Assembly (NCBI GenBank): GCA_031364845.1 | Contig: JANLWX010000060.1 | Coordinates: forward strand, 1-36,164 | Direction of reading: 5' to 3' | From: Candidatus Eiseniibacteriota bacterium | GTDB taxonomy: Bacteria; Eisenbacteria; RBG-16-71-46 | DNA length: 36,164 nucleotides | In this document: piece after piece, positions 879-27,755 of the stretch | How the letters are laid out: each line of letters starts with the position of its first letter | Position numbering within the stretch: position 1 is the first letter of the stretch | Program-made: the position numbers and the translations under genes | Notes under the pieces: generated by a model | What the model saw: the letters and a program-made list of their open reading frames with translations, nothing else | What the model was told of the DNA's origin: nothing | Database searches by the model: none

Positions 879-906
879 TTCAGGTCTCCCGAACCGGGGC
901 CGATAC
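879..906 (+). promoter_or_regulatory. Candidate sigma-28 promoter upstream of the mglA-like gene
   Basis: TTCAG-N15-GCCGATAC; both boxes and the spacing are identical to the site upstream of csrA. Confidence 0.6.
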
Positions 907-1155: not shown

Positions 1156-2322
1156 GTGGTCGTCGTCAGTTATTCGGGCAAAGAGATCAACGCGAAGCTC
1201 GTGTACTACGGCGCCGGGTTGAGCGGGAAGACCACGAACCTCGAATCGATCTTCGAGGCGGTTCCCGACACCAGCCGCGGCAAGATGGTCAGCATGAAGA
1301 CGCAGTCCGACCGGACGCTGTTCTTCGACCTGTTGCCGCTCGATCTGGGCGAGATCATGGGCTTCAAGACCCGTTTCCTGCTCTACACGGTTCCCGGCCA
1401 GGTGTTCTACAACGCCACCCGCAAGCTCGTGTTGAAAGGCGCCGACGCTGTCGTGTTCGTCGCCGATTCCGAGATCGGGAAGATGGACGAGAACCTCGAG
1501 AGCCTCGGAAATCTGCGCGCGAATCTGGCGGAGTACGGGGTCAAGCTCGAAGAGATCCCGATCGTGCTCCAGTACAACAAGCGCGATCTCGAGAACAAGT
1601 ACTCCGTCGAAGAATTGAATGCGGCGCTCAACCCGGAGGGAACGATTCCGTGGTTCGAGGCAGTCGCAAGTCAGAGCAAGGGCGTATTCGAGACGTTCCG
1701 CGGGGTCTCCCATCTGCTGATGGAGAAGGTCACGAAGGATCTGCGCCGCACTCCGCTCTCGACGACCGGACGCACGCCGCGCGCCACCGAGGCCGCAGCT
1801 GCGGCAGCGGCGCCCGCGCCCGCGCACAATCCGCTCAGCCTGCCCAACATCTCGGCGATCCCGCTGCCTCCGAACCATGCATCGATCTCGGCGCCGCCGA
1901 ATGCGTCGGACGTGCCTGCGCTCGAGTTCGGACGCGAGGTGAGCCTGCCGCAGGAGGCGCTCGGCGCCGCGGAAGATCCCGCTCCAGCACTAAGGCGGCC
2001 CGAGCCCGCGTTGTCCTCGGCGGTGGAGCGCAAGGATTCGGACTCGCGTCCGCACCCGGTGCTCACGCCGGTGACGACGATCGCGGCGACGGCTCATGCA
2101 ATGAAGTCCGAACCCGCGCACCATTCCAGCGTCCACGCGACCATCGAAACGGAAGCGGCATCGTCCCGCGTGCGTCCGGGCTTGAAGCCGTCCGAGCCGG
2201 TGACCCTGTCGCCCGCCACGGAGGGACTCGACGGAGTGGTCGAGGCGGTGCTGCCCGTCACGGTGACACGCGGTGGAACGCGCGAGATTCTTCTGAGAAT
2301 CGTGATCACCGACCGCGAGTGA
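1156..2322 (+). CDS. mglA: MglA-family small GTPase with long Ala/Pro-rich C-terminal extension
   Basis: EINAKLVYYGAGLSGKTTN (G1), RTLFFDLLPLDLG (G2), LYTVPGQVFYNATRKLVLKGAD (G3), LQYNKRD (G4); SD AGGAGG at 1142-1147, GTG start. Confidence 0.9.
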   Translation: MVVVSYSGKEINAKLVYYGAGLSGKTTNLESIFEAVPDTSRGKMVSMKTQSDRTLFFDLLPLDLGEIMGFKTRFLLYTVPGQVFYNATRKLVLKGADAVVFVADSEIGKMDENLESLGNLRANLAEYGVKLEEIPIVLQYNKRDLENKYSVEELNAALNPEGTIPWFEAVASQSKGVFETFRGVSHLLMEKVTKDLRRTPLSTTGRTPRATEAAAAAAAPAPAHNPLSLPNISAIPLPPNHASISAPPNASDVPALEFGREVSLPQEALGAAEDPAPALRRPEPALSSAVERKDSDSRPHPVLTPVTTIAATAHAMKSEPAHHSSVHATIETEAASSRVRPGLKPSEPVTLSPATEGLDGVVEAVLPVTVTRGGTREILLRIVITDRE

Positions 2323-6667: not shown

Positions 6668-6695
6668 TTCAGCCGCGTGGAACTTTGGCCGATAC
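6668..6695 (+). promoter_or_regulatory. Candidate sigma-28 promoter for csrA-flgM
   Basis: TTCAG-N15-GCCGATAC about 50 nt upstream of the csrA ATG; flgM is a classic sigma-28 target. Confidence 0.65.
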
Positions 6696-6746
6696 GCTGA
6701 TCGTCGGGGAGAGGGTCCTCGACGCCGGAGCGGAGGAAGCTGGACG

Positions 6747-6974
6747 ATGCTGGTCCTAACAAGGAAGTTAGGCGAGAACATCCGAATCGGTGATTCGGTC
6801 AAGATCACCGTGCTCGAGGTGAGGTCCGGCCAGGTCAAACTCGGCATCGAGGCTCCGCCCGAAATCAAAGTCCACCGCGAAGAGATCTATGCCCGCATCC
6901 AAGAAGAAAACCGTCGCTCGCAAGGCAAAGGCGAAACGCCCGGCCCTGCGCGTGATCCGAACGAAACCAAGTAG
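6747..6974 (+). CDS. csrA: Carbon storage regulator CsrA/RsmA
   Basis: [62 protein letters not shown]. Confidence 0.97.
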
Positions 6975-7110
6975 CTCCGGCGCGCCGGAGCGCGTTCGCT
7001 GGTCCAAGGTCGTCACCGCGCAGACGCGTATTGCGGATGGCTACTACGACCGCGACGAAGTGCGCGAGCAACTGCTCAGCCAGGTGTTGAACGAATTGCT
7101 CCAGCACTGA
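6889..7110 (+). CDS. flgM: FlgM-like anti-sigma-28 factor, overlapping the 3' end of csrA
   Basis: C-terminal [19 protein letters not shown] matches the FlgM core pattern (R..KV...K..I..G.Y..D); small size; fliA nearby; followed by a terminator. Alternative start GTG 6952. Confidence 0.65.
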
Positions 7111-7134
7111 CGCCTGAGTCGTGCGTGTGTGCAG

Positions 7135-7158
7135 GCCCGCCCTTCGGGGCGGGCTTTC
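7135..7158 (+). terminator. Rho-independent terminator after csrA-flgM
   Basis: GCCCGCCC-TTCG-GGGCGGGC-TTTC. Confidence 0.75.
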
Positions 7159-7205
7159 GCATATGCGCCGGGTTTGCGATACTGCGGCACTCCTATGGTG
7201 ACCCC

Positions 7206-8432
7206 ATGCCGCTCGTGAGCGCGCCCTCCGCCGCCGGCCGCACCCGCATCGACTACGAGGCGCTGCTGCGCGCCGTCGCCCGTGACTCGGACGCCGGAAT
7301 CCTCGTGCTCGATCCGAAGCGCCGCGTGCACACACTCAATCCTGCGGGTGAGCGGCTGCTGTCGGTGCGCGCGCCCGCGGTGCGCGGCAAGCCGGGTTCC
7401 ACGCTGCTGCGCACCGTGGTCGCGGGCGACGATCCGGTCGCCGACGCGTTCAAGGCCGCGCAACTCGAGCGCGACACCGTGCTCGTGAACGCCGACGGCG
7501 CCGAGATCCCGGTGGTGTTGCGCAGCGTGCGCTTCGGAAAACCTGCATGGGTCGTGATCATGCTGCGCGATCTCACGCAGATGCGCCGCATGCAGCATGA
7601 GCTGCGGCGCAACGAGCGCCTCGCCACACTCGGCCAGCTCTCGGCCGGCGTGGCGCACGAGATCCGCAATCCGCTCGCGGGCATCGGCACCAGCGCTCAG
7701 GTGCTGTTGCGCCGCTTCGAACCGCGCGACGATCGCGCGCGGTTCGTGCAGGTGATCCTCGATGAAGTCGGACGACTCGATCGCATCGTCACGAATCTGC
7801 TGCTGTAGGCGCGGCCGCGCACGCCGGAACTGAAGCCGGGCGATCTTCCGGCGTGCGTGGCGCGCGTGCGCGAGCTGACCACGGAAGCGGTCACCGCGCA
7901 GGGAATTCAGGTCGAGTGCGTGGTCGGATCGCGGCTCGGTCCGATCTGGCTCGACAACGATCTCGTCACACAGGTGGTGCTCAACGTGACGCTGAATGCG
8001 ATCCAGGCGATGCCGGCCGGTGGCACGCTGCGCTACGAGATCCGGCAGGTACGCCGCCGCCGCCCGCCGCGCGGGCCCGGACGGCGCGCGGACGATCCGT
8101 CGCGGCGTTCCAACGGCGAGCCGCGCAAAGCGCCGGCCGCGGCCGGTTGGATTCACTATCAGCAGGTGCGCGTGATCGACACCGGAGTCGGCATTCCCCG
8201 TCATGCGCTGTCCAAGATGTTCGATCCGTTCTTCACGACCCGGCCCGGCGGTACGGGGCTCGGTCTTTCGATCTGCCAGACCATCATGCAGGAGCACGGC
8301 AGCGCCATCGAGGTGGCGAGCCGCGAAGGGCGCGGCACCACCGTGCTCCTGAGCTTCCCCGTGGAGAAACGCCATGGCGAGAGACGCGAGTCCTCCCGGA
8401 ACCCGGACCCAGCACACGCTGCTCGTCGTTGA
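7206..8432 (+). pseudogene. PAS-HisKA-HATPase sensor kinase (FleS/AtoS/NtrB type) interrupted by an in-frame TAG at 7806-7808
   Basis: PAS-like N-terminus, H-box AGVAHEIRNPLAGI, then LLL*ARP; the same frame continues to N-box QVVLNVTLNAIQAM, DTGVGIP, FDPFFTT, GTGLGLSI. Confidence 0.85.
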
Positions 8433-9807
8433 CGACGAGCGGTCCCTGCGTTTCAGCATCGGAGAGTGGGCGCGCGACCTCGCGTTCCATGCGCTCGAGG
8501 CGTCGACCGGCGCCGAGGCGCTGGAGAAGGTGCGCGAGCACGCGGTCGACGTGGTGCTGCTCGACCTGAAGCTCGGCGAGGACGATGGCCTCGACGTGCT
8601 GAAGCGGCTGCGCGAGGAGGATCCCGGCCTGCCGGTGATCATGCTCACCGGCCACGGCACGGTGGAGCACGCGGTGAAGGCGACCCAGCTCGGCGCCTAT
8701 GACTTCATGCTCAAGCCGCCCAACCTCGATCATCTCGGCGTGATCGTGCACCGCGCGCTCGAACGCGCGCGGCTGCAGCGCGAGGTCGAGCACTGGCGCG
8801 CGGGCACCCAGGGTCAGACCACGTTGATCGGCGAGAGTGCTGCGCTCAAGAAGGTGCTCCAGCGTCTCGAGAAGGCGGCCAAGAGCGGAACCGCGACGGT
8901 GCTGATCCGCGGCGAGACCGGCGTGGGCAAGGAACTGATGGCGCGCCATCTCCACGAACACAGCGTGCGCGCGGGCGGTCCGCTGATCGAGGTCAACTGC
9001 AGCGCGATTCCCGAGCAACTGTTGGAGAGCGAACTCTACGGTCACGAGAAGGGCGCGTTCACCGACGCCAAGCGCTTCAAGAAGGGTCTGGTTGAGATGG
9101 CCGACGGGGGCACGCTGTTCCTCGACGAGATCGGGGAGATGGCGAGCCAGCTCCAGGCCAAGCTGCTGCGCGTGCTCGAGTCGCACACGTTCCGCCGCGT
9201 CGGCGGCAGCGACGACGTGACCGCCGACGTCCGCGTGGTCGCGGCCACGCACCGCGACCTGCCGAAGCTGGTCGCCGAGGGGCGCTTCCGCGAAGACCTC
9301 TACTTCCGTCTCAACGTGGTGCCGATCGAGATGCCGCCGCTGCGCGCGCGCACCGAGGACATTCCGCTCCTGGCGGAACACTTCATCGCGCGCTTCTGCG
9401 GCGAGCTCGGCCGTCCCGCGGCACATCTGCATCCTGCGGCCCTCGGGCTCATGATGTCCTACGCGTGGCCGGGCAACGTGCGCGAGTTGAAGAACGTGAT
9501 CGAGCGCATCGTGCTGCTCGAAGCGGATCAGGAGATTTTGCCAGACCATCTGCCGGCCGAGATGCTCGGTTCCGCCGCGCGCTCGGGTGGCGGTTCCGGC
9601 GTGAATCCGTTCCCGCCGGGTGAGGTCGTGCCGCTCGCCGAGATCGAGATGATGGCGATCCGTCACGCGCTCGACGTGTGCGATGGCAACAAGACGCGTG
9701 CGGCGGGCCGCCTCGGAATCTCCCGCCAGACGCTTCGAACCAAGCTCAAGGAGTTCGCGATCGACGACATCGCGGACGACGACGGCGAGGCCGACGACAC
9801 GAAGTAG
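8374..9807 (+). CDS. Sigma-54-dependent response regulator (REC-AAA+-Fis HTH; NtrC/FleR/AtoC family)
   Basis: [81 protein letters not shown]. Confidence 0.95.
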
Positions 9808-10160
9808 CGCCGCGGCGAAGCGCGCCCCGCCGTCACCGGCGGCGGGGCCGATGATGCAGAGTGGTCCCGGCCGGATCCGCACGCCGCCATCGCCCGGATG
9901 GCCGACCAGAAACCCTCCGGGTGCCACCGCGGCCGCAACGAGGTTGGGCGGGCGATATGCACCCGCCCCACTTCGGTTTGCACGTCCGCCGGAGCGAAAT
10001 CCCACCTTCCGGCCGCCATCGCGGGCGCGCTGCTCCACCCCGCGCGCGCACCCAACTGACGCAGAATCAACGCCATGCCCCTGCCGCGCACCGGTTCACA
10101 CGAGGTCGCGCGGATTCGTGCCCGCGCCGTCGCGCCCGCGGCGTTGCGCCGTCGCACTCA

Positions 10161-10178
10161 CTGGCACGCAGACTGCAA
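10161..10178 (+). promoter_or_regulatory. Sigma-54 (-24/-12) promoter of the 10216-17205 operon
   Basis: CTGGCACGCAGACTGCAA: GG at 10163-64 and GC at 10175-76, matching TGGCACG-N4-TTGCW; about 350 nt of upstream intergenic space for an enhancer. Confidence 0.8.
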
Positions 10179-10215
10179 CCTGGGTTCCTCGTCGTTCACC
10201 TCCCAAGGAGCCCGC

Positions 10216-10617
10216 ATGCCACACATTCTGATCGTTGAAGACGAGCCCTCGACCTCCTGGGCGCTATCGGAGGGCCTGTCGGACGACGGCTTCACGATCG
10301 ACACGTTCCGCACCGGCGAGGACGCGTGGCTGTGGCTCCAGCAGGGAAAGAGTGACCTCGTGATCTCGGATCTGCGTCTGCCCGGAATGAGCGGGATCGA
10401 GCTCGCGCGCAAATTGCAGCGTGGCCCGCACGCGCAGCCGGTGATCCTGGTCACCGCCTATTCCGCCCCTGACGAGGCGGGCGCACTCGAGCGCGCGGGA
10501 ATCGTCGACTTTTTTGCGAAGCCGTTCCTGATCGATCAACTGCGTCAGTCGGTACAGCGCGCCCTCACCGGAGCGCCGCGCCGCAAGACGCGCAAGTCTC
10601 GTGGAGCCACCTCATGA
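10216..10617 (+). CDS. Single-domain response regulator (REC)
   Basis: ILIVEDE, LVISDLRLPGMSG, VILVTAY, FAKPF; AAGGAG SD. Confidence 0.9.
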   Translation: MPHILIVEDEPSTSWALSEGLSDDGFTIDTFRTGEDAWLWLQQGKSDLVISDLRLPGMSGIELARKLQRGPHAQPVILVTAYSAPDEAGALERAGIVDFFAKPFLIDQLRQSVQRALTGAPRRKTRKSRGATS

Positions 10618-10937
10618 AGGCCCAGCCCCGCCGCCGTACCGTTGCCGGTGCCCCGAAACTGACCCTGATCGAAACGCCGGCCCGTCAGCTGCTCGCGGCG
10701 GCGCTCGGCCGCTGCACCGAGCCGCAGCGAACGATGCTCGCACTGATGCTGGTCGAACGCCTGTCTTCGGCCGAGGCCGCCATCACGCTCGGCGTGACGG
10801 TCGGGCAGTTCGAACGCTCCTATCGCTCGCTGATCTCCGACCTGCGCCGTTCGATGGACCGCACCAACCGCAATCGCTGGCGCGCGGCCGCGACGCTCGT
10901 TCGCGAACACGTTTCGCGTCTGCGGAAGGCGTCATGA
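10614..10937 (+). CDS. Stand-alone sigma-70 region-4-like HTH protein
   Basis: ALGRCTEPQRTMLALMLVERLSSAEAAITLGVT...LISDLR aligns by eye with the FliA C-terminus (LDHLPEQERLVVALYYYEHMTLNEIGRALGIS...AMARLR); ATGA overlaps on both sides. Confidence 0.7.
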   Translation: MKAQPRRRTVAGAPKLTLIETPARQLLAAALGRCTEPQRTMLALMLVERLSSAEAAITLGVTVGQFERSYRSLISDLRRSMDRTNRNRWRAAATLVREHVSRLRKAS

Positions 10938-11206
10938 GCGCGGACCGCAACGTGTGGCTCACGCCGTCGGCCGATCCCGCGCGCGAGATTTCGCGCTCGG
11001 CGTCCGAACGGCAGTGGCAGATCGAAGCCGCGCTCGCGTCGCTGAACCAGGAGCAGGCGCGGCTCGACCGCCTCGGATTCGAAGTGCCGCTCGCGCGCTG
11101 CCATCAGCAGCGCCGGTTCTGGGAATTCGTCCGCGCGCTCGACGGCATGGGTGTGACGGGCACGGCGGGCAACTCCGGCATCGACTCAATCGGGCGGGCC
11201 GCGTGA
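10934..11206 (+). CDS. Hypothetical helical protein, 90 aa (MSADRNVWL...IGRAA)
   Basis: Fills the gap exactly, with ATGA and GTGA stop/start overlaps; coiled-coil-like sequence. Confidence 0.7.
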   Translation: MSADRNVWLTPSADPAREISRSASERQWQIEAALASLNQEQARLDRLGFEVPLARCHQQRRFWEFVRALDGMGVTGTAGNSGIDSIGRAA

Positions 11207-12123
11207 GCCGTCGCGACGACAAGACTTCGCGCCCGGCCGCCGAGGCGCGGGGCGCGCTCAAGCTCGTGGGCCACAAGGGCACTCCGTCCGAGCTCGACCG
11301 CATCACGCATCCCGCGCAGTGGCAGCGTTCGCACGTGCCGATGATCGCGGTCGCGAGCGGCAAGGGCGGCGTCGGCAAGAGCAACCTCGCCGCGAATCTC
11401 GCGGTGGCGCTCGGAGAATCGGGCGCGCGCGTGCTGCTGGTCGATGCGGATTTCGCGCAGGCGAACCTCGACCTTCTGCTCGGCGTGCATCCGCGGTGGG
11501 ATCTGCAGCACGTCCTGTCGGGCGAGAAGCAGCCCGAAGACATCGTGCTTCAGGCGGCGAAGAACGTGAAGCTGGTGCCGGCATCCTCCGGCGTTCCCGA
11601 TCTCGCCGAACTCGACGACTACCGCCGCGAGTTCCTGCTGCGCGCGCTCAGCCAGCTCGAAGGTGACGTCGATCTCGTGCTGCTGGATCTCGCCTCCGGC
11701 GTCTCCAACACCGTGACGTCGCTGTGCCACGCGGCGCACGAAGTGATCGTCGTGACCACTCCCGAGCTGCCGGCGTTCTCGGATGCCTACGCGCTCATCA
11801 AGCTTCTGCATCAGCAGGGCCGCATGCGCCCGCCGCACCTCGTCGTCAGCATGACGAGCCCCGAGGATGAGGCCGACGAGACTGCGCACCGCATCCGGCT
11901 CGTCGCGCGCCGCTTCCTGCAGCAGGAAGTCGAGTACCTCGGCTCGGTGCCGTTCGATCCCGCCGTGTCGCGGGCCGTGCGCCGTCAGGAACCTGTCGTC
12001 ACCGCCTTTCCCCAGTCTCCGGCCGCCGCGGCGTATCGCGGTCTGGCAGGACGGCTGTGGTCAGCCCCCGATCCCGATCCCAAGGTCCGCACCCCGCACG
12101 CCCCGCAGCGTCTCGAAGCCTGA
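11203..12123 (+). CDS. flhG: FlhG/FleN MinD-family ATPase
   Basis: IAVASGKGGVGKSN, VLLVDADFAQANLDLLLG, VIVVTTPELPAFSDAYALIK, AVRRQEP; immediately upstream of fliA. Confidence 0.85.
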   Translation: MSRRDDKTSRPAAEARGALKLVGHKGTPSELDRITHPAQWQRSHVPMIAVASGKGGVGKSNLAANLAVALGESGARVLLVDADFAQANLDLLLGVHPRWDLQHVLSGEKQPEDIVLQAAKNVKLVPASSGVPDLAELDDYRREFLLRALSQLEGDVDLVLLDLASGVSNTVTSLCHAAHEVIVVTTPELPAFSDAYALIKLLHQQGRMRPPHLVVSMTSPEDEADETAHRIRLVARRFLQQEVEYLGSVPFDPAVSRAVRRQEPVVTAFPQSPAAAAYRGLAGRLWSAPDPDPKVRTPHAPQRLEA

Positions 12124-12137
12124 ACAAGGAGCCCCGC

Positions 12138-12959
12138 ATGCCGCGTACCGCCACCGCCGCGCCCGTCCGTCGCACCCCGCCGCTTCGGATCACCCGCCGC
12201 ACGACGCCCGCTCCGGCGCCTGCGCCGAAGGCGATCACGTACACGAAGGACGAACTGGTGCGCCGTTTCGCGCCGCTCGTGCGCCACGTCGTCGAGCGCG
12301 TCGCCGCGACGCTGCCGAAGAACGTGGATCACGAGGACCTGTACTCGGCCGGCGTGCTCGGCCTGCTCGATGCGCATGCGAAGTTCGACTCGGGCAAGGG
12401 CGTGAAGTTCGAAACCTACGCGGTGTGGCGTATCAAGGGCGCGGTGCTCGACCAGCTGCGCTCGCTCGATTGGGTGTCGCGCTCCATGCGGCGCAAGGCG
12501 CGCAACCTCGACGGCATCACGCGCAAGCTCGACCAGAAGCTGGGCCGCGCGGCGTCCGAAGAGGAAGTCGCGCGCGAGATGAAGATGTCGACCGGCGACT
12601 TCTACCGCCTGCTCGACCATGTTCGCGGCGCGGTGCTGGTGTCGTTGGACGAGAGCCGTTCGGGCGAGGACCAGGAGCCGTCGACGCTCGGCGACCACCT
12701 TCCGGACCCGGGAGCGCTCGACGTCGAAGCGCGCCTCGAGGAAGAGCAGTCGCGGGTCGTGATCCTCCGCACGCTCGATCATCTTCCGGAGCAGGAACGC
12801 CTCGTGGTCGCGCTCTACTACTACGAACACATGACGCTGAACGAAATCGGCCGCGCGCTCGGCATCTCGGAGTCGCGGGTTTCGCAGGTGCACAGCCGCG
12901 CGATGGCGCGGCTGCGGCTGCGTCTGAACCGGTCGATCCATGGAGAGATGGCCGCGTGA
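12138..12959 (+). CDS. fliA: FliA/WhiG family RNA polymerase sigma-28 factor
   Basis: EDLYSAGVLGLLDA, FDSGKGVKFETYAVWRIKGAVLDQLRSLDWVSRSMR, LYYYEHMTLNEIGRALGISESRVSQVHSRA; AAGGAG SD. Confidence 0.95.
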   Translation: MPRTATAAPVRRTPPLRITRRTTPAPAPAPKAITYTKDELVRRFAPLVRHVVERVAATLPKNVDHEDLYSAGVLGLLDAHAKFDSGKGVKFETYAVWRIKGAVLDQLRSLDWVSRSMRRKARNLDGITRKLDQKLGRAASEEEVAREMKMSTGDFYRLLDHVRGAVLVSLDESRSGEDQEPSTLGDHLPDPGALDVEARLEEEQSRVVILRTLDHLPEQERLVVALYYYEHMTLNEIGRALGISESRVSQVHSRAMARLRLRLNRSIHGEMAA

Positions 12960-13351
12960 TGGCGGCAGAGCACGAGTCCGGCGCGGGCGCTCCGTCCGCG
13001 GCGGAGTTCCGTACGAGGATGCTCCAGTGTGCCGAGGAGATGGTGGCGGCCGGCGCCATGGCGAGCGCCGAGACGCTGCGAGAATCGGTCGAGACGTGGT
13101 GGCGTGAGCAGGATGCGTGGCAGCAGGAAGTCGCGCGCATGCTCGATGTCCATCACGAGATCAATAACGCGCTGGTCGGCGTACGCGGCCACGCACAGCT
13201 CCTGCTCCTCGGGCCCGCCGGTGGCGACCCGCGGGTGCGCGATCGCCTGGAGGTGATCATCCGTGAATCGGAACGCATCGAAAAAGCCGCGCAGCAGCTC
13301 CGCGAAATTCGCAGCCGTATCGTCGGCCCCGACGCGACGCGCGCCGCGTGA
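12959..13351 (+). CDS. Stand-alone HisKA/DHp-domain protein with no ATP-binding domain
   Basis: VHHEINNALVGVRGHAQLLL...RDRLEVIIRESERIEK is an H-box helical hairpin; TGATG overlap with fliA. Confidence 0.75.
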   Translation: MAAEHESGAGAPSAAEFRTRMLQCAEEMVAAGAMASAETLRESVETWWREQDAWQQEVARMLDVHHEINNALVGVRGHAQLLLLGPAGGDPRVRDRLEVIIRESERIEKAAQQLREIRSRIVGPDATRAA

Positions 13352-13358
13352 GCCGCAC

Positions 13359-14363
13359 GTGAAGAAGACCGCGCTCGCCGCGTCGGCCGTGAAGCGGACC
13401 GCGCAGGCCGAGCCGCTCGCTCCGGCCGAACCGGTGGTCGCGACGTCGCGGCGCGGGGACGCCGCCAATGCGAATTCGAGCGACCGCCGCCGCGCCTCGC
13501 GCTTTCTGTGGGCCGCGTGCGAATCGCTGCTGGCGGCCGCCTCCGAGCCGCGCTCGATGAACCGGGCGCTCGACATGATGAAGCAGGCGTTCGAATGCGA
13601 CGCCGTGTCGCTGCACGTGCTCGGCCCCTCGGGTGAGATCCAGCCGTGGAGCGCGCGCGGAGCGTGGCAGACGCGTGCCGGCGACCTGCGCGACTGCATG
13701 TCGGTTCCGCTGTTCCGCGGAGACGAGCGCGTCGGAACCCTGGACCTGCTCGCTTCGCCGGGCAAGAGCTGGCGCCCTGCGCAGCTCGGACTGATCCGCA
13801 CCGCGGCCGGCGCGATCGGTGCGGCGATCGGAACCCGGCTCGAGTTGCAGCGGCTGCGCAATCTTCCGGGACGCGATGCGCTCACCGGACTGCCGGACTC
13901 GCGCGCGTTCCAGAGCCGGCTCGCCGAGGAGTTGTCGCGCGCGCGCCGACACGCGGTGCCGGTGTCGGTGATCGTGCTCGATGTGGACCGGCTCGCCGAG
14001 ATCAACACCCGTTACGGCCGGCCGGCCGGTGACGCGGTGCTGGCCGAGACCGCGCTGGTGCTCAAGCTCGTGCTGCGCGAGTCGGACATCGTCGCGCGCA
14101 TGGAAGGGGACTCGTTCGGACTGCTGCTGCCCGAGACCGATCGCGATTCGGCGCTGCGCTGCGCGGAACGTGTGCGGCGCGCGCTCGAGGAACACCGCTT
14201 CGCCCGCGTCGGCCGCATCAGCGCGAGCGCCGGCGTGGCGGCGTGTCCGCCGGACGGCGTCGAGAACGTCGAACTGCTCGAAGCCGCAGAGAAGGCCGTG
14301 ACGCTCGCGAAGAAGGGCGGACGCCGCCGCGTCATGATCGCCACGCCGTCCGCGGTGCATTGA
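13359..14363 (+). CDS. GAF-like plus degenerate GGDEF-domain protein
   Basis: DALTGLPD, VLDVDRLAEINTRYGRPAGDAVL, RESDIVARMEGDSF, ISASAGVA; start uncertain (GTG 13359 chosen). Confidence 0.85.
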   Translation: MKKTALAASAVKRTAQAEPLAPAEPVVATSRRGDAANANSSDRRRASRFLWAACESLLAAASEPRSMNRALDMMKQAFECDAVSLHVLGPSGEIQPWSARGAWQTRAGDLRDCMSVPLFRGDERVGTLDLLASPGKSWRPAQLGLIRTAAGAIGAAIGTRLELQRLRNLPGRDALTGLPDSRAFQSRLAEELSRARRHAVPVSVIVLDVDRLAEINTRYGRPAGDAVLAETALVLKLVLRESDIVARMEGDSFGLLLPETDRDSALRCAERVRRALEEHRFARVGRISASAGVAACPPDGVENVELLEAAEKAVTLAKKGGRRRVMIATPSAVH

Positions 14364-14365
14364 TC

Positions 14366-16111
14366 ATGGCCGCCCCCGATCTCGATGCCGCGCTGCCGGG
14401 GCCTTCCGTCGCCGATCCGGACGATCGTCCCGCCCGGATTCTGGTCGTCGACGACGAGCCATCGGTAGCCGAGATCTTCCAGGAGTTCCTCACCGACCTC
14501 GGTCACGAGATCACCGTGGCCGCGTCCGGCGAAGAGGCGCAGCGTCTAATTCCCACGCTGCATCCCGACATCATCCTCACCGACATCAACCTGCCCGGAA
14601 TCTCGGGACTCGAGGTGATGCGGATCGCCAAGCGCCACGATCCCGAGACCGCGGTCATCGTGGTCACCGGTCACGCCTCGGCGGCGACCGCGATCGATGC
14701 GCTGCGGCAGGGCGCCTACGACTACATCACCAAGCCGTTCGATCTCGACGAAATGCATCAGATCGTCGAGCGCGGCCTTGCGAACCGGCGGCTCAAGTCG
14801 ATCAACCGGCGGCTGGTGGAAGAGCTGCGCCAGAAGAACGAGATCCTCCAGTGCCACGAGCACGAGTTGCGCGAGCGCGTCGCGAACGCCACCGCCCAGC
14901 TCAAGCGCCTCTACGACGTCGGCATGGAGGTGAGTGCCAACCTCGAACTCGCCCCGCGCCTCGGGATGATCTGCGAGAAGAGTGCAGAGCTGTGCGGTGC
15001 GGCCATGGCGGTCGTGTTCCTCAAGCAGCCTGAGCAGGACGACTGCTATGCCGCCGCCGCGCACGGGCTCGATCTCCCGGAGCTCGAGGAGGGGCAGGTG
15101 CACTGGCTCGGACGCGACAGCGTGATCACGCCCGCCGTCGCCGAGCGCCACACCGTCCGGCGCAACGTGCCCGCGGATGCGGACTCCGAGACGGTGTCCG
15201 GCATCGACGGCCTCGAGTTTCGTTCGCTGCTCGCCGCACCGATGGTCGCCGACGTCGAAGTGATCGGGGCGCTGGTGGTGTTCGATGCTCCGCGCGGCTT
15301 CAGCGACGATGACGAGAGTTTCCTCGAATTGTTCGCGTCGCAGACCGCGATCGCGGTCCGCAACTCGCAGCTGTTCGAGCACACGAAGAGCCTCGACCGG
15401 CTCAAGTCGGAGTTCGTCGCGGTCGTGTCGCACGAGATCCGCACGCCGCTCACGTCGATCAAGGGCGCGGTCGAGCTGCTCTCCGACGACCGCTACTTCG
15501 ACAACACCGGCCAGCAGGGCAAGCTGCTCGCTATCGCGAACGCGAACACCGAGCGGCTGCTGGTGTTGATCAACGACATTCTCGATTTCTCAAAGCTCGA
15601 ATCCGCTTCGCTGCGGTTGAACCTCGAGCCCCAGGCGCTCGAACCCGTGATCGAGCAGGTTGCAAGCGGCATGCGCACGCTGGTCGAGGAGCACAAGGTG
15701 CAGCTCGAACTGCGGCACTCGGAGCCGATTCCGGACATTCCACTCGACGCGGGACGCATCACGCAGGTGCTCACGAACCTCCTGTCGAACGCGATCAAGT
15801 TCTCACCGCCCGGCGGCATCATCGAGATCGCGACCGAACAGGTCGGCGACGAGATCCAGGTCTCGGTCCACGACCAGGGTGAAGGCATCGCGCCGCAGAA
15901 TCTCGCGAAGCTGTTCCGAAAGTTCTCGCAGATCGACTCGACCTCGACTCGCAGGGCCGGCGGGGCCGGCCTCGGGCTCGTGATCTGCAAGGGCATCGTC
16001 GAACAGCACGGCGGCAGGATCTGGGTCGAGAGCACGCCCGGCGAAGGCAGCACGTTCTACTTCTCGCTCCCGGTCGTGAGCCCGTCGAGCGATCTGGTGG
16101 GGCGCTCCTGA
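14366..16111 (+). CDS. Hybrid histidine kinase REC-coiled coil-GAF-HisKA-HATPase
   Basis: ILVVDDE, TDINLPG, YITKPF; KSEFVAVVSHEIRTPLTSI; QVLTNLLSNAIKFS, DQGEGI, GAGLGLVI, GSTFYFSLP. Confidence 0.95.
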   Translation: MAAPDLDAALPGPSVADPDDRPARILVVDDEPSVAEIFQEFLTDLGHEITVAASGEEAQRLIPTLHPDIILTDINLPGISGLEVMRIAKRHDPETAVIVVTGHASAATAIDALRQGAYDYITKPFDLDEMHQIVERGLANRRLKSINRRLVEELRQKNEILQCHEHELRERVANATAQLKRLYDVGMEVSANLELAPRLGMICEKSAELCGAAMAVVFLKQPEQDDCYAAAAHGLDLPELEEGQVHWLGRDSVITPAVAERHTVRRNVPADADSETVSGIDGLEFRSLLAAPMVADVEVIGALVVFDAPRGFSDDDESFLELFASQTAIAVRNSQLFEHTKSLDRLKSEFVAVVSHEIRTPLTSIKGAVELLSDDRYFDNTGQQGKLLAIANANTERLLVLINDILDFSKLESASLRLNLEPQALEPVIEQVASGMRTLVEEHKVQLELRHSEPIPDIPLDAGRITQVLTNLLSNAIKFSPPGGIIEIATEQVGDEIQVSVHDQGEGIAPQNLAKLFRKFSQIDSTSTRRAGGAGLGLVICKGIVEQHGGRIWVESTPGEGSTFYFSLPVVSPSSDLVGRS

Positions 16112-16128: not shown

Positions 16129-17205
16129 ATGCGCGGCGCCGCAACCGGCCCGCAGCCGGTGCCGCCGAACGCCGTTTCCGCTCCCGCGGCATCCGGGCCG
16201 CGCGTGCTGCTGATCGACTCGCTCGATGCGCCGGGCGCCTATCCCGCCGACATCGCGGTGCGTGCGCGCGCGCTGTCGGCGCTCGGAACCGTGACCACCT
16301 GCGCGGTGCCGACCGGGTTCGGAGCACTCGAAGCGCATGCCGCGGCCGCCGCGCGGAGCGCTGTGGCCGATCGCATGGCGCAGGTGCGTCCCGACGTCGT
16401 GGTGATCGCCTCGTGCGCCGCTTCAGGCGGCGCGCTGGCGCGCGAGGTGAGTGCGAACACGGTGTGGTGGTGGCCGACGGGAATCGGAGCCGCTCCGCGC
16501 CGCTGGTCGCTGTGGCCTGCCGGTCGTCCGTCGGTCGCGATGCTGAAGGACGCCTCGAGCGCCGCGGATACCCCGCATCGCGTCCCGGGAGCGGAAGCGC
16601 TCGACTGGGCCGCGCACGACGCGCTCGAACGTCCGCATTCCAAACTGCCGCTGTGGGACGGACGCTACCTCGTCGTTCCGGCACCGCTCGGCGGGGACGC
16701 CGGCCGCGTGCTGCTCCAGGGATTCGCCGAACTCGACGCGCGCTGGGATCGCGTCGACCTCGTCGTGCTCGCGGATGTGCAGGAGGAATTCCTCGCGCAC
16801 GCTCGCGTACTCGGCATCGGCACCCGCGTGCACTTCGCCGGACCCGCCACCGCCGACGCGGAGCTGACATGGCTCGGCGGCGCCGCGGCCGTGGCGCTGG
16901 CGCCCGCAGGGCCGCTCGCGGCGAGCCTCGTGCTGCGTGCGCTCGCGCGCAACGTGCCGCTCGTGGTGCTCGGACCCCTCGCTGTGCCCATCCAGGCATG
17001 GCTCACGGATCGCGGCGCGCTGCCGCTGCCGTGGACCGCGGCAAAGCTGCCAGCCCGCGTCATGATGAGCGACGCGCTCGAGCGGGAGCGCGCGGTCGAA
17101 GCCGCGTGCGCGCGCGGCATCGAGGTCGCGCATCGCCACGGCGCGGCCGCACTCGCGGCTCGACTCGGTGGCGAACGGCCCGCGACGCGACGCCGCGCGG
17201 CCTGA
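16129..17205 (+). CDS. Divergent GT-B (GT4-like) glycosyltransferase-fold protein
   Basis: RPDVVVI, LGIGTRVHFAG, LVLRALARNVPLVV resemble the GT4 C-terminal domain, but the E-x7-E acidic motif is absent. Confidence 0.55.
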   Translation: MRGAATGPQPVPPNAVSAPAASGPRVLLIDSLDAPGAYPADIAVRARALSALGTVTTCAVPTGFGALEAHAAAAARSAVADRMAQVRPDVVVIASCAASGGALAREVSANTVWWWPTGIGAAPRRWSLWPAGRPSVAMLKDASSAADTPHRVPGAEALDWAAHDALERPHSKLPLWDGRYLVVPAPLGGDAGRVLLQGFAELDARWDRVDLVVLADVQEEFLAHARVLGIGTRVHFAGPATADAELTWLGGAAAVALAPAGPLAASLVLRALARNVPLVVLGPLAVPIQAWLTDRGALPLPWTAAKLPARVMMSDALERERAVEAACARGIEVAHRHGAAALAARLGGERPATRRRAA

Positions 17206-17363
17206 GTCTCGAACGTCGGGACGTCGACCCCGTCGCCCCACCCTGTGATCACGTTCGTTCCCTCGACGGGGCCGTGACGCGCCCTTGCCGAACCCGTTGC
17301 CGCTGGCCGCGGACGACGCGTTCACGCTAGATTCACTCCGGGTTTCATCACGACGGAGGTCAG

Positions 17364-18296
17364 GTGCGGATACTGGTAACCGGGGGAGCGGGATTCATCG
17401 GGTCGAACCTCGCGGACCGGTTGCTGGCCGAGGGCCACGAAGTCGCGATCCTCGATGATCTTTCGAGCGGCCGTCGTGATCAGGTTCCCGCCGCGGCGCG
17501 CTTCTACGAATCCGATCTCGACGATGCCGGCGCCACCGAACGCTGCGTCGCCGAGTTCCGTCCCGAGATCGTGAGCCATCACGCCGCGCAGATCGACGTG
17601 CGCCGCTCGGTCGCCGATCCCGTGCGGGATGCACGCACCAACATCCTCGGCTCGCTCGCGCTGCTCCAGAGCTGCACGCGCCATGGCGTGCGCAAGCTGA
17701 TCTACGCGTCGACCGGCGGCGCGCTCTACGGCGAGGGCCGCATCCTGCCGGCGACCGAGGAGCATCCGGTGAACCCGGAAGCGCCTTACGGCGCCAGCAA
17801 GCATGCGGTCGAGCACTACCTGTACCTGTGGAAGCAGCTCCACGGGCTCGACTGGACGGTACTGCGCTATCCCAACGTCTACGGCCCGCGGCAGAGTCCG
17901 CACGGAGAAGCCGGCGTGAACGCGATCTTCATCGGGCTGATGCTGGCCGGTGAGCGTCCGCGCGTGTTCGGGACCGGCGACCAGGTGCGCGACTACCTCT
18001 ACGTCGATGACGTGGTGGAAGCGAACGTGCGCGCGCTGTCGCAGGCGGGAGGGGAGATTCTGAACCTCGGCACCGGCATTCCGACCTCAGTCGACGATCT
18101 GGTGCGCGCGCTCAATCGCATTCTCGGCACGCAGATCGAGCCGATCCGGGAGCCGGAGCGGCCGGGCGAGATCCAGCGCATCTATCTCGACGCGACGCGC
18201 GCGGGCCGTCTGCTGGGCTGGCGTCCGCAGGTCGAACTGGACGAGGGACTGCGGCGAACCGTGGAATGGGTGCGCGGAGCTTCGGTCCGCCGCTAG
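17364..18296 (+). CDS. NAD-dependent epimerase/dehydratase (UDP-glucose 4-epimerase-like)
   Basis: ILVTGGAGFIGS, HHAAQIDVRRSV, YGASK (YxxxK), LRYPNVYGPRQ, RDYLYVDDV; GGAGGT SD. Confidence 0.95.
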   Translation: MRILVTGGAGFIGSNLADRLLAEGHEVAILDDLSSGRRDQVPAAARFYESDLDDAGATERCVAEFRPEIVSHHAAQIDVRRSVADPVRDARTNILGSLALLQSCTRHGVRKLIYASTGGALYGEGRILPATEEHPVNPEAPYGASKHAVEHYLYLWKQLHGLDWTVLRYPNVYGPRQSPHGEAGVNAIFIGLMLAGERPRVFGTGDQVRDYLYVDDVVEANVRALSQAGGEILNLGTGIPTSVDDLVRALNRILGTQIEPIREPERPGEIQRIYLDATRAGRLLGWRPQVELDEGLRRTVEWVRGASVRR

Positions 18297-22763: not shown

Positions 22764-24290
22764 TCACCGCAACGCCGTCGAATCGCCTTTCGGCGTCCAG
22801 ACGAAATCGGGCCGCGTGTGGAATCCGGTGAGCGGCCAGAACAGATCCTTCTCGTTCTCCCCGAACATCTGCGCGACGTGATCGTAGTAGGGCTGTGCCT
22901 CTTCCTTGAGCCACCCGGTGTGATCGAGCACGACGAGGCCGAACGCGTGCCCCCGCAGCGCGGTGCGCAGCGAGTCCATCAGCGCGTCACGCTGCGGCGT
23001 GTCGCGCGGTCGCAGCACGTCGGTGAGTGCGAGCTCGTGCGCATAGGATGGCTTGCCCGCCATCTCCGCGAGATACGGATGGCTCGGAATCCACACGTCA
23101 CCGCGCACGCGTCGGAGGCTCTCGACGAACTGCCGGCCCGCGGCCGCGTGGGCGGGTGTCGGGATCTGGAGCCACGGCTTGTACAGCAGCAACGAGAATT
23201 GAATCAGACACAGCACGACGGCGAAGCGCTCCAGCGCCCTGCCTCGTTCGCCGAGCGACTCGCGCAACCCGAGCAGGCGATCGAGTCCCCATCCGAATAC
23301 AAGACTCGCGGCGAGATGCGCGGGGATCACGAGATTGTCGTAGCTGCCGACCCGGATCTTGGTCACGTACGCGGCGATCACGAGTCCCACGACGAGCGCC
23401 AGATCGAGACCGTCGCGGCGCCACGTCTCACGCGACATGCGGCAGAAGCCGAACACTCCGAACGCGAACGCGATCGCGAAGGCGCCCAGCAGATCGGTGG
23501 TCCAGAATCCACGCAGCAGCTGGCCGATGATCGGATGGTCGCGCGGGAGGTCGAACGCGTAGTAGGCGTACCAGCCGCCTGAGGCGCGATCGAGTGCGAG
23601 CGTCGCTCCGCCGACGATCGCGCCGAGCGTGGCGCCGAATGCGATTCCGCGGCGCCAGTCGGTGAACACCAGGAATACCGCGGCGGGTGCGGCGATGAAC
23701 AACGCCGACTGCTTGGTGAGCGCGGCGAGCGCGAAGGCGAGTCCGCCGAGGATCCCCGCGAGCCAGGGCGGATCGCGCCGGAGCAGGAGGATGCCCGCCG
23801 CGACGAACGCGATGTAGACCGAATCGACGCGCGCGAGGTCGAACCACGCGCCGCCTTCGCGATAGCTTGCCGCGAACAGGCACGCGCCAAGCACGGCCGG
23901 CAGCCACCGGCTCGAACTCCGGCGCAGAGTCATGTAAACGAACGCGATCGTGCCGAGCGACGCGACGAACGACAGCAGCCGCAGGGGCGCGAATCCGGCG
24001 CCCGCGAACTTGGAAACGATCGCGCCGAGATAGAAGTAGAGCGGCGGGTAGATGAACGGAGTGAAGTGCAATGACGGCGCGACGTAGAGCGGCTGACCTT
24101 CGAGCACTCGGCGAACGTGCGCGACCACCGAGCCCTCCATCCATTCGAGTTCGAACGGGTGCCCCGCGCGCATCAGCGCGATCACGATGTAGGTGAGGGG
24201 ATAGGCGAGCGCGAACGCGGTCACCGCGCCCCACGCGGCACGCATGCCGGTGGTCGTGGTGGCGGGGGCGGTCTCGGGTGTCCGGTTCAT
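22764..24290 (-). CDS. Polytopic GT-C (ArnT/PMT-like) membrane glycosyltransferase, paralog A
   Basis: Many TM helices; HPFELEWMEG, PFIYPPLYF, GAWFDLARVDS, LTKQ; start MNRTPE overlaps the stop of the upstream gene. Confidence 0.75.
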   Translation of the reverse strand: MNRTPETAPATTTTGMRAAWGAVTAFALAYPLTYIVIALMRAGHPFELEWMEGSVVAHVRRVLEGQPLYVAPSLHFTPFIYPPLYFYLGAIVSKFAGAGFAPLRLLSFVASLGTIAFVYMTLRRSSSRWLPAVLGACLFAASYREGGAWFDLARVDSVYIAFVAAGILLLRRDPPWLAGILGGLAFALAALTKQSALFIAAPAAVFLVFTDWRRGIAFGATLGAIVGGATLALDRASGGWYAYYAFDLPRDHPIIGQLLRGFWTTDLLGAFAIAFAFGVFGFCRMSRETWRRDGLDLALVVGLVIAAYVTKIRVGSYDNLVIPAHLAASLVFGWGLDRLLGLRESLGERGRALERFAVVLCLIQFSLLLYKPWLQIPTPAHAAAGRQFVESLRRVRGDVWIPSHPYLAEMAGKPSYAHELALTDVLRPRDTPQRDALMDSLRTALRGHAFGLVVLDHTGWLKEEAQPYYDHVAQMFGENEKDLFWPLTGFHTRPDFVWTPKGDSTALR

Positions 24291-25792
24291 CGAGGCTCCG
24301 GCAGCCACAGCGTCTGCGGGCGCAGCGGCGCGCCCGATCGGGGGAAGAAGGCGCGATCGCCGGGCCCCAACCAACTCGCCGCGGGACGATAGAGGCCGCC
24401 GAGGTGCTGCTCGAACGCCTGGTTGTCGTCGAGCACCAGTGCCGTGAAGCGTCGCGCGACGAACGCCTGTTCGATGTCGTGCTGCAGCGACACCGGGCGC
24501 GAGCGCGGCGCGGCGCGCAATACGTCGATCACCGCCATGAGGTGCGCGTGCGATTCCTTTCCGGCGAGGGTGGCGAGGTACCCGTGACCGGGAATCCACA
24601 CGTCTCCGGGAAGCGCGCGAATCCGGTCGGTGAGCGCCGTACCCGCTTCGGCATCGGCGCGGGACGGCACGTAGCGCAGCGGATTGTACGCAAGGACGGC
24701 GAACTGGACGAGTGCGAGCACGAGGACCACGCGCGCGCGGGCGGGCGATGCCGTCGCCGAGGCGCCCGCGATCCGCACGAAACCGCGCGCGCCGAGGATC
24801 GCGAGTGCTGCGTGCGCCGGCATCAGCACGTTTTCGGCGCCTCCCTCGTGCATGCGCGAAACCCACGCGGCACCGAGCATGCCGGCGGCGAGCGCGAGGT
24901 CGATCCGGCGTTCGCGCGTGATCGCCCCGCCGCGCGCGATACGCTCCGGCCCGCCTCCGGCCTTGGTCTTCGCGCCCGGCAGCAGTGCCGCGATCGAGAA
25001 CGCGATCGCGATCGCGAACGGCGCGAGCATGTCCATGAGCCAGAATCCCGCGACCGCGCGCGGCTCGATGCGATGGGCGCGCGGCAGTTCGAGGATGTAG
25101 AAGGAATACCAGCCTCCGCTCGCCTGCTGGAGGGCGAGATGCCCGCCGCCCGCGACCACCACGAACGCGAGCCCGAGCCCCGCGAGTCCGCGCCGGTCCT
25201 CGAACGCAAGCGCGACCGTGAACGGAAGCATGATCAGCGCCGCCGGCTGCTTCGTCAGATAGGCGACGCCGAACAGCACACCCGCTGCCGCGCCGCGCCC
25301 GAAGCCCCGGCCGCCGGCGAGCACGGCGATCGCGCCGAGCGTGAGTGCGAGGAACAGCGCGTCGACCCGGCCGAGGTCGAACCACGCGCCGCTCTTCGCA
25401 TACGACGCGGCGAACAACCCCGCGGCGATGAGCCCCGCACCGCGTCCGGTGCCGCCGCGGTTCGCGAGCCGCGCGATCAGGACGAACGAAACGAGCGTTG
25501 CCCCGAGCGACACCACGCGCATCGCCGCGAATCCCTCGCCGGTCACGCGCGCGACGAGCGCCGCCGCGTGGAAGAAGACCGGCGGATAAAGGAACGGCAC
25601 GTAGTCGATCGCCGGCGCTCCATACAGCGGCAGTCCCGCGAGCACCCGGCGCACGGCGTCGCGCATGCCGCCTTCGATCCACTCGAGTTCGTACGGATGA
25701 CCGAGGCGCGCCAGTGCCACCGCGAGGAACAGCACGAGCGCCAGCCACGAGATCGCGGCGAGCGCCGCATGCGCGCGGGGGTGCGGCGTCAT
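24287..25792 (-). CDS. Polytopic GT-C membrane glycosyltransferase, paralog B
   Basis: HPYELEWIEG, PFLYPPVFF, GAWFDLGRVDA, LTKQ, ASGGWY; collinear with paralog A. Confidence 0.75.
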   Translation of the reverse strand: MTPHPRAHAALAAISWLALVLFLAVALARLGHPYELEWIEGGMRDAVRRVLAGLPLYGAPAIDYVPFLYPPVFFHAAALVARVTGEGFAAMRVVSLGATLVSFVLIARLANRGGTGRGAGLIAAGLFAASYAKSGAWFDLGRVDALFLALTLGAIAVLAGGRGFGRGAAAGVLFGVAYLTKQPAALIMLPFTVALAFEDRRGLAGLGLAFVVVAGGGHLALQQASGGWYSFYILELPRAHRIEPRAVAGFWLMDMLAPFAIAIAFSIAALLPGAKTKAGGGPERIARGGAITRERRIDLALAAGMLGAAWVSRMHEGGAENVLMPAHAALAILGARGFVRIAGASATASPARARVVLVLALVQFAVLAYNPLRYVPSRADAEAGTALTDRIRALPGDVWIPGHGYLATLAGKESHAHLMAVIDVLRAAPRSRPVSLQHDIEQAFVARRFTALVLDDNQAFEQHLGGLYRPAASWLGPGDRAFFPRSGAPLRPQTLWLPEPR

Positions 25793-25836
25793 CGGCGTCT
25801 CGGGTTGCGCCCTGCGCAGCGGGGCGGATGGGGCGG

Positions 25837-26931: not shown

Positions 26932-27755
26932 TGCGCGCTCCCACTGGTTCCTGCGGCGCGTTCGGCGGCCGCGATGCGCGCGCGGACCGCAGTACGGCGG
27001 TGAGGGCCGAAGCGCTCGAGGAACCGTTGCCCGAGCAGCGTGACCGTGGTGCGGATGGTGCGCAGCACCTTCATCTTGCTGTTGCCCACGCGCTCGCCGT
27101 AGTCGAGCACGAACGGAATTTCGGTTGCGCGCACGTCGAGCGGCCGCAGCTTGATCAGCAGATCCATCACCGCTTCGAATCCGCGCGCGGTGCAGAGGTC
27201 GTCGCCATAGGCGAGCCGCGCGCGCCGCAGCAGCGGGACGCGGAAGGCGCGGAAGCAGCAGGTGTAGTCACGCACGCCGGGAATCGGGAACATGCCCTGG
27301 AACACGAGCCTGCCGACATCCGACAGCGCGCGGCGATAGCCGGGCACTCCGTGGACCTCGGAACCCCCGCGGTAGCGCGAGGCGATCGCGAGATCGAATC
27401 CCTCGCGCACGCGCGCGACCAGCACCGGGATCAGTGCCGGCGGATGCGTGTTGTCGGCATCGAGCGTCACGATCACGTCGTCGTCCTGCGCGTGGTCGAG
27501 GCACCAGTAGATGCCGGTGCGCAGCCCGGCGCCGAGTCCCTGGTTGCGCTCGTGCCGCAGCACCGTGAGCGTGAGCGTGCCCTCGCTGTCGTGGACGGCG
27601 CGCTCGGCCTCGGCGATCGTGCGGTCGGTGCTGCCGTCGTCGACCAGCACCGCGCGGTAGGCGCCGCCGTCCGCGCGCATCGCGGCCACCAGCGCCATCA
27701 GTGTGGGATGGATGACGGCTTCTTCGTTCCACGCCGGGAAGATCACGAAGATCAT
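26928..27755 (-). CDS. Glycosyltransferase family 2 (polyprenol-phosphate sugar synthase-like)
   Basis: PAWNEE, VDDGSTDRT, NQGLGAGL, TLDADNTHPP, ASRY, DYTCCFRAFR. Confidence 0.9.
   Translation of the reverse strand: MIFVIFPAWNEEAVIHPTLMALVAAMRADGGAYRAVLVDDGSTDRTIAEAERAVHDSEGTLTLTVLRHERNQGLGAGLRTGIYWCLDHAQDDDVIVTLDADNTHPPALIPVLVARVREGFDLAIASRYRGGSEVHGVPGYRRALSDVGRLVFQGMFPIPGVRDYTCCFRAFRVPLLRRARLAYGDDLCTARGFEAVMDLLIKLRPLDVRATEIPFVLDYGERVGNSKMKVLRTIRTTVTLLGQRFLERFGPHRRTAVRARIAAAERAAGTSGSAQ

Follow-up and report, generated by a model that had tools for sequence, protein, structure and literature searches.

Flagellar regulators kept as a conserved block without flagellar structural genes in Eisenbacteria, with predicted pilus and polarity targets

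Here, we analyzed a stretch of 36,164 nucleotides from a Candidatus Eiseniibacteriota bacterium (the window; contig JANLWX010000060.1 of assembly GCA_031364845.1), which carries a block of flagellar-type regulatory genes. The source genome, G000, comprises 4.6 Mb in 233 contigs and is 97% complete, the window being its contig C20; in the following, G-numbers denote genomes, C-numbers contigs of G000, L-numbers fetched stretches and f-numbers families within the phylum. Translation and family scans placed all named genes at 6747–16111 on the forward strand, in the order proposed in the initial annotation. The block opens with csrA (6747..6974; PF02599 E 8e-26, TIGR00202 above cut-off), a gene for a short, putative FlgM-like anti-sigma factor of 73 amino acids (aa) (6889..7110), a PAS-HisKA-HATPase sensor kinase identified by family scan (7206..8432) and a REC-AAA-HTH sigma54 activator with a GAFTDA loop (8374..9807; PF00158 E 7e-69). 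Downstream of the activator, an inverted repeat (CAAC-GAG-GTTG, 9936..9946) represents a candidate enhancer 226 bases upstream of a sigma54 -24/-12 site (TGGCAC-N5-CTGCA, 10162..10177). This site heads an operon encoding a single-domain receiver (REC) protein (10216..10617; PF00072), a lone sigma28-like region-4 protein (10614..10937), a 90-aa two-helix hairpin protein of no known family (10934..11206), the FlhG/FleN-type ParA/MinD ATPase with the Walker A motif GKGGVGKS (flhG, 11203..12123), the sigma factor FliA (sigma28; 12138..12959), a lone HisKA (phospho-acceptor) protein with its histidine kept (12959..13351; PF00512), a GAF-GGDEF protein (13359..14363) and a REC-GAF-HisKA-HATPase hybrid kinase assigned by family scan (14366..16111). 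The presence and order of csrA, the FlgM-like gene, the PAS kinase, the activator, the -24/-12 site and the operon with flhG and fliA are thereby confirmed. Neighboring genes from REC through flhG overlap by 1–4 bases, as do fliA and the HisKA gene; flhG and fliA are instead separated by a gap of 14 bases. No Rfam families were found in the window.

Several proteins of the block show a marked conservation of functional residues. FliA scores 243 bits against TIGR02479 (cut-off 189.6) and carries Pfam regions 2, 3 and 4, which places it in the sigma28 (FliA/WhiG) family. Its region 4.2 reads GISESRVSQVH in 77/78 homologues, and the promoter-reading residues are invariant despite an overall identity of 60–85%. 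The lone region-4 protein has its best PDB matches in region 4 of FliA/WhiG (E 1e-11), and its recognition helix varies, unlike that of FliA; a homologue is also present in the flagellated relative G037. PhyR provides a known case of a sigma mimic, and by analogy we hypothesize that the region-4 protein may act as a FlgM decoy. The FlgM-like ORF itself gave no Pfam match and no match to FlgM in the PDB. Its homologues, found in 50 loci, are mostly 63–73 aa long with a conserved C-terminal half and a short, variable N-terminus, and 8 of the 44 aligned sequences match Pfam FlgM (PF04316) at E<=0.05, the best being the G037 protein (1.5e-6). A similar N-terminal stretch, L-[RK]-[LV]-[IV], was observed in FlgM, the region-4 protein, FlhG and FliA (window 6889–7110 and 10614–12959; L120, L122, L125, L128, L132).

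The HisKA protein retains H[DE][IV]xNAL in 65 of 68 sequences and is a candidate phosphotransferase or phosphate sink. Family scan and motif check showed that the active site of the GAF-GGDEF protein has decayed: GG[DE]EF is found in only 7/68 sequences and the window protein reads EGDSF, which does not correspond to an active diguanylate cyclase. The motif is intact in the flagellated genomes G037, G039 and G060. Because RxxD is kept (67/68) while GG[DE]EF has decayed, we infer that this protein may be a cyclic di-GMP (c-di-GMP) receptor. The 90-aa hairpin protein was found in 64 loci (predicted local distance difference test score, pLDDT, of the model 84) and gave no match in Pfam, Atlas or Foldseek, the best Atlas value (0.78) and the best Foldseek E-value (2.0) being uninformative. 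Its reading as RsiG was rejected, since the motif that characterizes RsiG, E(X)3S(X)2R(X)3Q(X)3D (PMC8325347), had 0 matches in the cluster proteins and the 3624 proteins called for G000.

Both promoter types of the block are conserved. The sigma54 site upstream of REC was present in 56/56 loci that contain the activator as well as REC; elsewhere in the same spacer, it occurred in 0/56. The GAGGTTG core of the candidate enhancer occurs in 27/56 of these loci, nearly always about 200–235 bases upstream of the sigma54 site, and before only 1/18 sigma54-type sites in G000. A sigma28-type site precedes csrA-flgM (6668..6694), and its motif, TNNAG-N15-GCCGAWA, was found before csrA in 44/49 related loci. 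Scanning G000 with the pattern from the csrA sites gave 19 matches at spacer 15 versus 0–5 at any of the remaining spacers between 8 and 23; 14 of the 19 are intergenic and at most 300 bases from a start. The box GCCGATA alone is intergenic in 90/366 occurrences, compared with 9% non-coding DNA. Sigma28-family factors are characterized by promoters of the TAAA(G)...GCCGATA type enriched at one spacing before genes, as observed here, and the motif corresponds to TTAAG-N16-CCGATA, the consensus of the attack phase in Bdellovibrio (PMC3627812). In addition, the lptC-lptB-rpoN operon of G000 (C90:18701–21517) carries a sigma54-type site and, in G017 and G037 (L150, L166), homologues of lptC carry sigma28-type sites, which points to a possible feedback on rpoN.

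Next, we compared the block across 80 related loci, a gene being counted wherever the contig reaches. The order csrA-flgM-kinase-activator-REC-(region 4)-hairpin-flhG-fliA-HisKA-GGDEF-hybrid is held as far as the contigs extend and is therefore not due to chance. The most widespread member is fliA (80), followed by flhG (76), GGDEF (72), REC (70), the hybrid kinase (68), HisKA (67), the activator (65), the hairpin protein (62), the kinase (55), csrA (51), flgM (48) and the region-4 gene (32). Genes for glycosyltransferase, epimerase, PMT-type and deacetylase proteins flank the block (window 16129–18296 and 22764–30400), the epimerase gene being the next one after it in 42/80 loci.

Flagellar structural and export neighbors are missing around the block, as the initial annotation had stated, and this extends to the whole genome. 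Searches with the families of flagellin, FlhA and rod/hook proteins returned 0 matches for G000, each being matched in 4/14 control genomes, and tblastn with proteins called in ten stretches of relatives’ flagellar clusters found none of FliF, FliG, FliM, FliP, FlhB, MotA, FlgE, FlgK, FliD, FliS and FliW. The tblastn matches of FlhF and FliI reached just 28–37% and were read as signal recognition particle (SRP) GTPases and ATP synthase. One match resembling a methyl-accepting chemotaxis protein (MCP) fell below the cut-off; CheA was not searched for. Thus, neither flagellar structural or export genes that could serve as targets nor an MCP above cut-off were found in the 97% complete genome in 233 contigs, and a complete flagellar set elsewhere, with sigma28 motifs mainly before flagellin and chemotaxis genes, was not observed. 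Both rpoN and clpX are present. The same pattern holds widely in the phylum: FliA was found in 58/61 genomes and FlhA in 15/61, leaving 43 genomes with FliA and without FlhA, and among 201 phylum genomes 187 have FliA and 69 a flagellin domain. Some of the genomes counted in these tallies, and in those for single families below, are incomplete, and one of them, G038, is unpublished; no conclusion depends on G038 alone.

The origin of the block can be read from flagellated relatives. In G037, the locus has the same flanks as the window, with mglA, a trpA-like and a SpoIIE-type gene on one side and valS on the other. Here, flgF to fliW lie before csrA and fliC-fliS-fliD before flgM; flgM is followed by the kinase, the activator, REC, CheR, REC, the region-4 gene and a second kinase/activator pair, and further along by flgB to flhA-flhF, flhG, fliA, HDOD, GGDEF and the hybrid kinase. 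G039, G055 and G060 share this layout in the parts fetched, and synteny in the four genomes makes the regulators of the block orthologous to those of the flagellar clusters, the window FlhG being 51% identical to the protein encoded after flhF in G037. In these relatives, the genes of the block follow one another as in the window but are interspersed with flagellar operons, so that gene order identifies the block as the regulator part of an ancestral Eisenbacteria flagellar supercluster, in which deletions at about five places would have spared the regulators. REC, the region-4 protein, the GGDEF protein and the hybrid kinase (located after fliA in flagellated relatives, too) are thus old neighbors present at the same places in flagellated clusters, and not replacements of flagellar genes as first supposed. 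For only two block members, the hairpin protein and HisKA, no counterpart was seen in the fetched clusters of flagellated relatives. The kinase and activator had also been likened to the fleSR-type pair next to a flagellar operon; they differ from the pair directly before flgB, and in a FastTree phylogeny the retained activator groups apart from the activators preceding flgB. FliA of the window groups with those of flagellar clusters (support 97, quick tree).

Traces of the deletions vary among genomes. G053 (L125:681–10246) retains fliW, csrA and a flagellin-domain remnant, with the cluster of its family mate G060 being complete; G057 (L121:7537–11291) keeps fliN-like and fliO genes; and families f1 and f3 are without what is present in f2, a family of their own order. 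Because these leftovers differ, flagellar loss looks repeated, with at least three separate losses suggested by the remaining genes.

As a next step, we looked at genes predicted to be controlled by FliA in G000. Outside the range considered in the initial annotation, a sigma28-type site (TTCAG-N15-GCCGATA, 879..905) lies 250 bases before a gene for a GTPase of the MglA family that is extended by a long C-terminal stretch (1156..2322; PDB MglA E 4.6e-72), of which it is the predicted promoter. Sites also precede an MshEN-ATPase/pilT/pilU operon, two further pilT units, a PilB paralogue, a pilin and a minor-pilin operon. In relatives, the mglA site was found at the exact spacing in 22/29 cases (-10 box 23/29), that of the PilB paralogue in 24/29 (28/29) and that of pilT in 13/25, and a site before a gene for a SgmX-like TPR protein was found in 27/27, compared with 0/15 for valS, 0/51 for the kinase and 1/42 for the epimerase as control genes (30 best matches per search, hence mostly family f1, with loci having short upstream DNA excluded). 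The TPR site lies inside the end of the upstream gene, where GCC-GAT is used in 28/28 sequences, though these codons account for 31% and 36% of genome usage; as synonymous codons are fixed, a protein constraint was rejected. Pilus ATPase units are likewise preceded by sites in G040, G056 and G057, and PilM was present in 57/61 genomes. The flagellated G037 has sites before pilins and a PilB-type gene, so the link between sigma28 and pili probably predates flagellar loss. The initial annotation had suggested a circuit kept and rewired for another program. Retention without flagella holds, and rewiring is doubtful in view of G037; the predicted targets include polarity and pilus genes, and predation or a developmental cell type found no evidence here.

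Further observations concern the surroundings of these sites. Directly before mglA, positions 392–793 encode a 133-aa protein with 64–70% identity in relatives and 52% in G037; an assignment as MglB-like was rejected, as there was no Pfam or NCBIfam match. One pilT lies within an accB-accC operon (L178:2246–3930, C67 of G000; also in G001 and G056), is called as two frames in G000 and has a sigma28-type site. Sigma54-type sites were found before a pilin gene (L181:4716–5192) and the minor-pilin operon (L182:3205–3645), the latter having both kinds.

The protein ends encoded by the operon suggest a control of timing. An AA C-terminus was found in 63/78 FliA (MAA in the window), 58/66 HisKA, 48/69 REC, 30/60 hybrid kinase, 21/64 hairpin and 15/37 region-4 sequences (frames outside a set length range excluded), and the last residue of FlhG is alanine in 72/73. 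CsrA (0/50), FlgM (0/50), the activator (0/52) and the GGDEF protein (2/67) showed few or none, with a genome background of 2.9%. AA-type ends act as ClpXP degrons; the transfer-messenger RNA tag ends in LAA and ClpX is encoded, so that these ends qualify by sequence as putative ssrA-like degrons. An origin as a by-product of start/stop overlaps was rejected: the genome rate at 4-base overlaps is 4.8%, and FliA ends in AA in 22/26 non-overlapping cases. For the region-4 and hairpin proteins, overlap may be a partial cause.

Altogether, the block is a regulator remnant of the ancestral flagellar cluster and probably still works as a sigma54-to-sigma28 cascade, with pilus-polarity as well as signalling and envelope genes as predicted targets. 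In this cascade, the sigma54 activator would be phosphorylated by the PAS kinase, bind at CAAC-N3-GTTG and thereby open the sigma54 promoter, so that FliA would be made along with REC, FlhG, the HisKA protein, the candidate GGDEF receptor and the hybrid kinase. As its targets, FliA would then transcribe mglA, the gene for the SgmX-like TPR protein, genes of accessory PilB/PilT motors and of some pilins as well as signalling and envelope genes, and, as a feedback, its own brakes csrA and flgM. As there is no export gate, FlgM would likely be released by proteolysis or by titration, either through freshly synthesized FliA or through the lone region-4 protein. FleN is known to damp FleQ, and by analogy FlhG would damp the activator. 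Finally, ClpXP would clear FliA and its operon mates through their AA ends, resulting in a pulse. The pilus role was probably already held while flagella were present, which would account for the repeated retention of the block. A bolder extension, which we put forward tentatively and hold to be rather unlikely as a whole, is a self-terminating pulse throughout the phylum, in which a dedicated sigma54 activator would give rise to a degron-tagged sigma28 and a region-4 mimic, the latter titrating FlgM as a substitute for the lost export checkpoint, and which would produce a polar, pilus-driven cell (MglA, SgmX-like protein, PilB/PilT), the flagellum being a dispensable output of an older program and lost several times.

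Several observations weigh against the cascade as proposed. All regulation is deduced from motifs, and the related loci are kin and not independent, so the conservation counts overstate. The site before the MshEN-ATPase operon recurs in relatives in 3/22 cases at exact spacing (-10 box 8/22); no sites were found before the core pilus operons (pilM-type on C122 and C47, pilB-pilT-pilC on C186); and a second mglA on C87, with an upstream MglB-sized gene, has none. The TPR protein (contig C186) has SgmX as its best NCBIfam match (NF052243, E 3.3e-14) with 52 bits at a cut-off of 1800, and its PDB matches are generic TPRs. Enrichment among pilus and polarity genes depends on the pattern: 7 of 16 hand-picked units, which leave out both pilM operons, had a site versus 37/2090 with a pattern widened after matches had been seen, 4/16 versus 24/2090 with the first, stricter pattern, and 2/16 versus 50/2090 (p 0.054) with the published WhiG pattern. 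The PAS kinase has an in-frame TAG at 7806–7808 in this assembly, which the initial annotation had not noted. This stop is absent from all 74 related kinase matches, which read L-L-x-Y/F there, and a 90%-alike contig has TAC at the position; in the best-matching run, no contig covers 7711–7819. The TAG thus represents either an error or a strain mutation.

A further point is that, among the 37 genes preceded by a site, 30 are neither pilus nor Mgl genes and belong to signalling, envelope or unknown functions, among them hybrid kinases, HEAT-HD, HDOD and REC-GGDEF proteins, glycosyl- and carbamoyltransferases and murA. This breadth would also fit a global cell-stage switch toward a dispersal, attack or dormant form, a role apparently played by FliA in Bdellovibrio and by sigma54/sigma28 in Chlamydia, with the pilus-polarity genes as just one arm. 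In line with such a switch, sites lie before murA and murB in G000 as well as in G057 and before clpX in G056, the combination of AA degrons, lone REC, lone HisKA and an RxxD-only GGDEF protein recalls the CpdR/ChpT/PopA layout of Caulobacter, and the motif is the attack-phase consensus mentioned above. However, no gene for a distinct cell type was identified, and polarity and pilus genes are the best-conserved targets among those tested. A cell-stage switch overlaps with the pilus-polarity cascade, from which it mainly differs in scope, and appears possible but considerably less likely.

Flagellated members of f1 and G058 have a second flagellar system (L130–L131, L286–L292) with its own flhF-flhG-fliA, by tree unrelated to the native one; its FliA, located in flhA-flhF-flhG-fliA clusters, is split off with support 98 (quick tree). 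In G020, this system includes FlbT and FlaF, and flhG and fliA are called as one frame. G030, a genome without flagellin or FlhA matches, carries a remnant of it with fliA2, flhG, an activator and flaF (L134:9992–13336), so regulators were again left behind. With flagellin-domain matches in 28/86 and FlhA in 9/36 members of f1, the retained block could still serve flagella by helping to control this second system, persisting elsewhere owing to recent loss. This is very improbable, as the second system has an activator of its own besides flhF-flhG-fliA2, FliA is kept in f3 (FlhA 0/10) and f11 (FliA 38/41, flagellin domain 0/41), and its promoter-reading residues are invariant at the divergence given above. 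A decaying relic without current function in this genome, as the kinase stop and the decayed GGDEF site might suggest, is equally hard to reconcile with a stop unique among 74 kinase matches, eleven other open frames, conserved order and promoter motifs and target sites enriched in G000.

Taken together, the locus offers a natural series of a sigma cascade outliving its organelle: within one phylum, it occurs in a flagellated form and in forms with partial or full deletion, and some members later possess a second flagellar system together with a separate FliA. For this uncultured phylum, it leads to the prediction of a pilus-based surface behavior and a regulated cell state. The region-4 mimic or proteolysis is a candidate answer to how FlgM could be relieved without export. 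No description of this locus was found in the literature searched, which covered few subscription papers and no supplements; in the part of PMC13443453 covered, the only mention of Eisenbacteria is that CsrAs repressing a flagellin transcript are predicted for them at a low rate. The separate ideas have precedents in Legionella, Rubrobacter, Bdellovibrio and Chlamydia, and the whole retained block, its scale and its predicted MglA/SgmX-like/PilB output were not found in that literature.

In Chlamydia, which is also non-flagellated, sigma54 acts before sigma28 and ClpXP matters for timing (PMC13463777). However, the chlamydial sigma28 regulon consists of two genes, hctB and tsp, compared with about 20–40 predicted targets here, and a FlgM/FlhG/CsrA block is not described for Chlamydia in the part of PMC13463777 covered. 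FliA of Bdellovibrio bacteriovorus, a global regulator of the attack phase, resembles the factor described here in promoter consensus and spacing and in its many non-flagellar targets, but this bacterium is flagellated and has flagellar genes within the FliA regulon (PMC3627812). In Myxococcus xanthus, MglA-GTP binds SgmX, which localizes PilB (PMC7519303), and the three best-conserved predicted targets resemble these proteins. Here, the likeness to SgmX is weak and confined to the N-terminal 190 residues, MglA is long-tailed without an adjacent mglB, and sigma28 control of the M. xanthus module is not described in the part of PMC7519303 covered. A sigma28-family factor tied to type IV pilus genes, as predicted here, is known from Rubrobacter, where WhiG directs type IV pilus and c-di-GMP genes from promoters of the flagellar type (PMC8325347, PMC13595943). 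In Rubrobacter and Streptomyces, the anti-sigma factor is the c-di-GMP-bound RsiG, the motif of which is absent in G000; here, a FlgM-like protein, FlhG, CsrA and a sigma54 tier lie in an ancestral flagellar locus, and the predicted targets are polarity regulators and accessory motors in place of the pil cluster. The non-flagellated Legionella oakridgensis has likewise kept FliA-FlgM, with flgM sigma28-dependent and FlgM seemingly degraded (PMC5655016); in both cases, sigma28 and its anti-sigma factor outlive the flagellum and FlgM must be removed without export. In contrast to this single species, which keeps FliA and FlgM only, most of the Eisenbacteria phylum retains the kinase, activator, FlhG, CsrA and c-di-GMP genes as one block, with a predicted output in pilus polarity.

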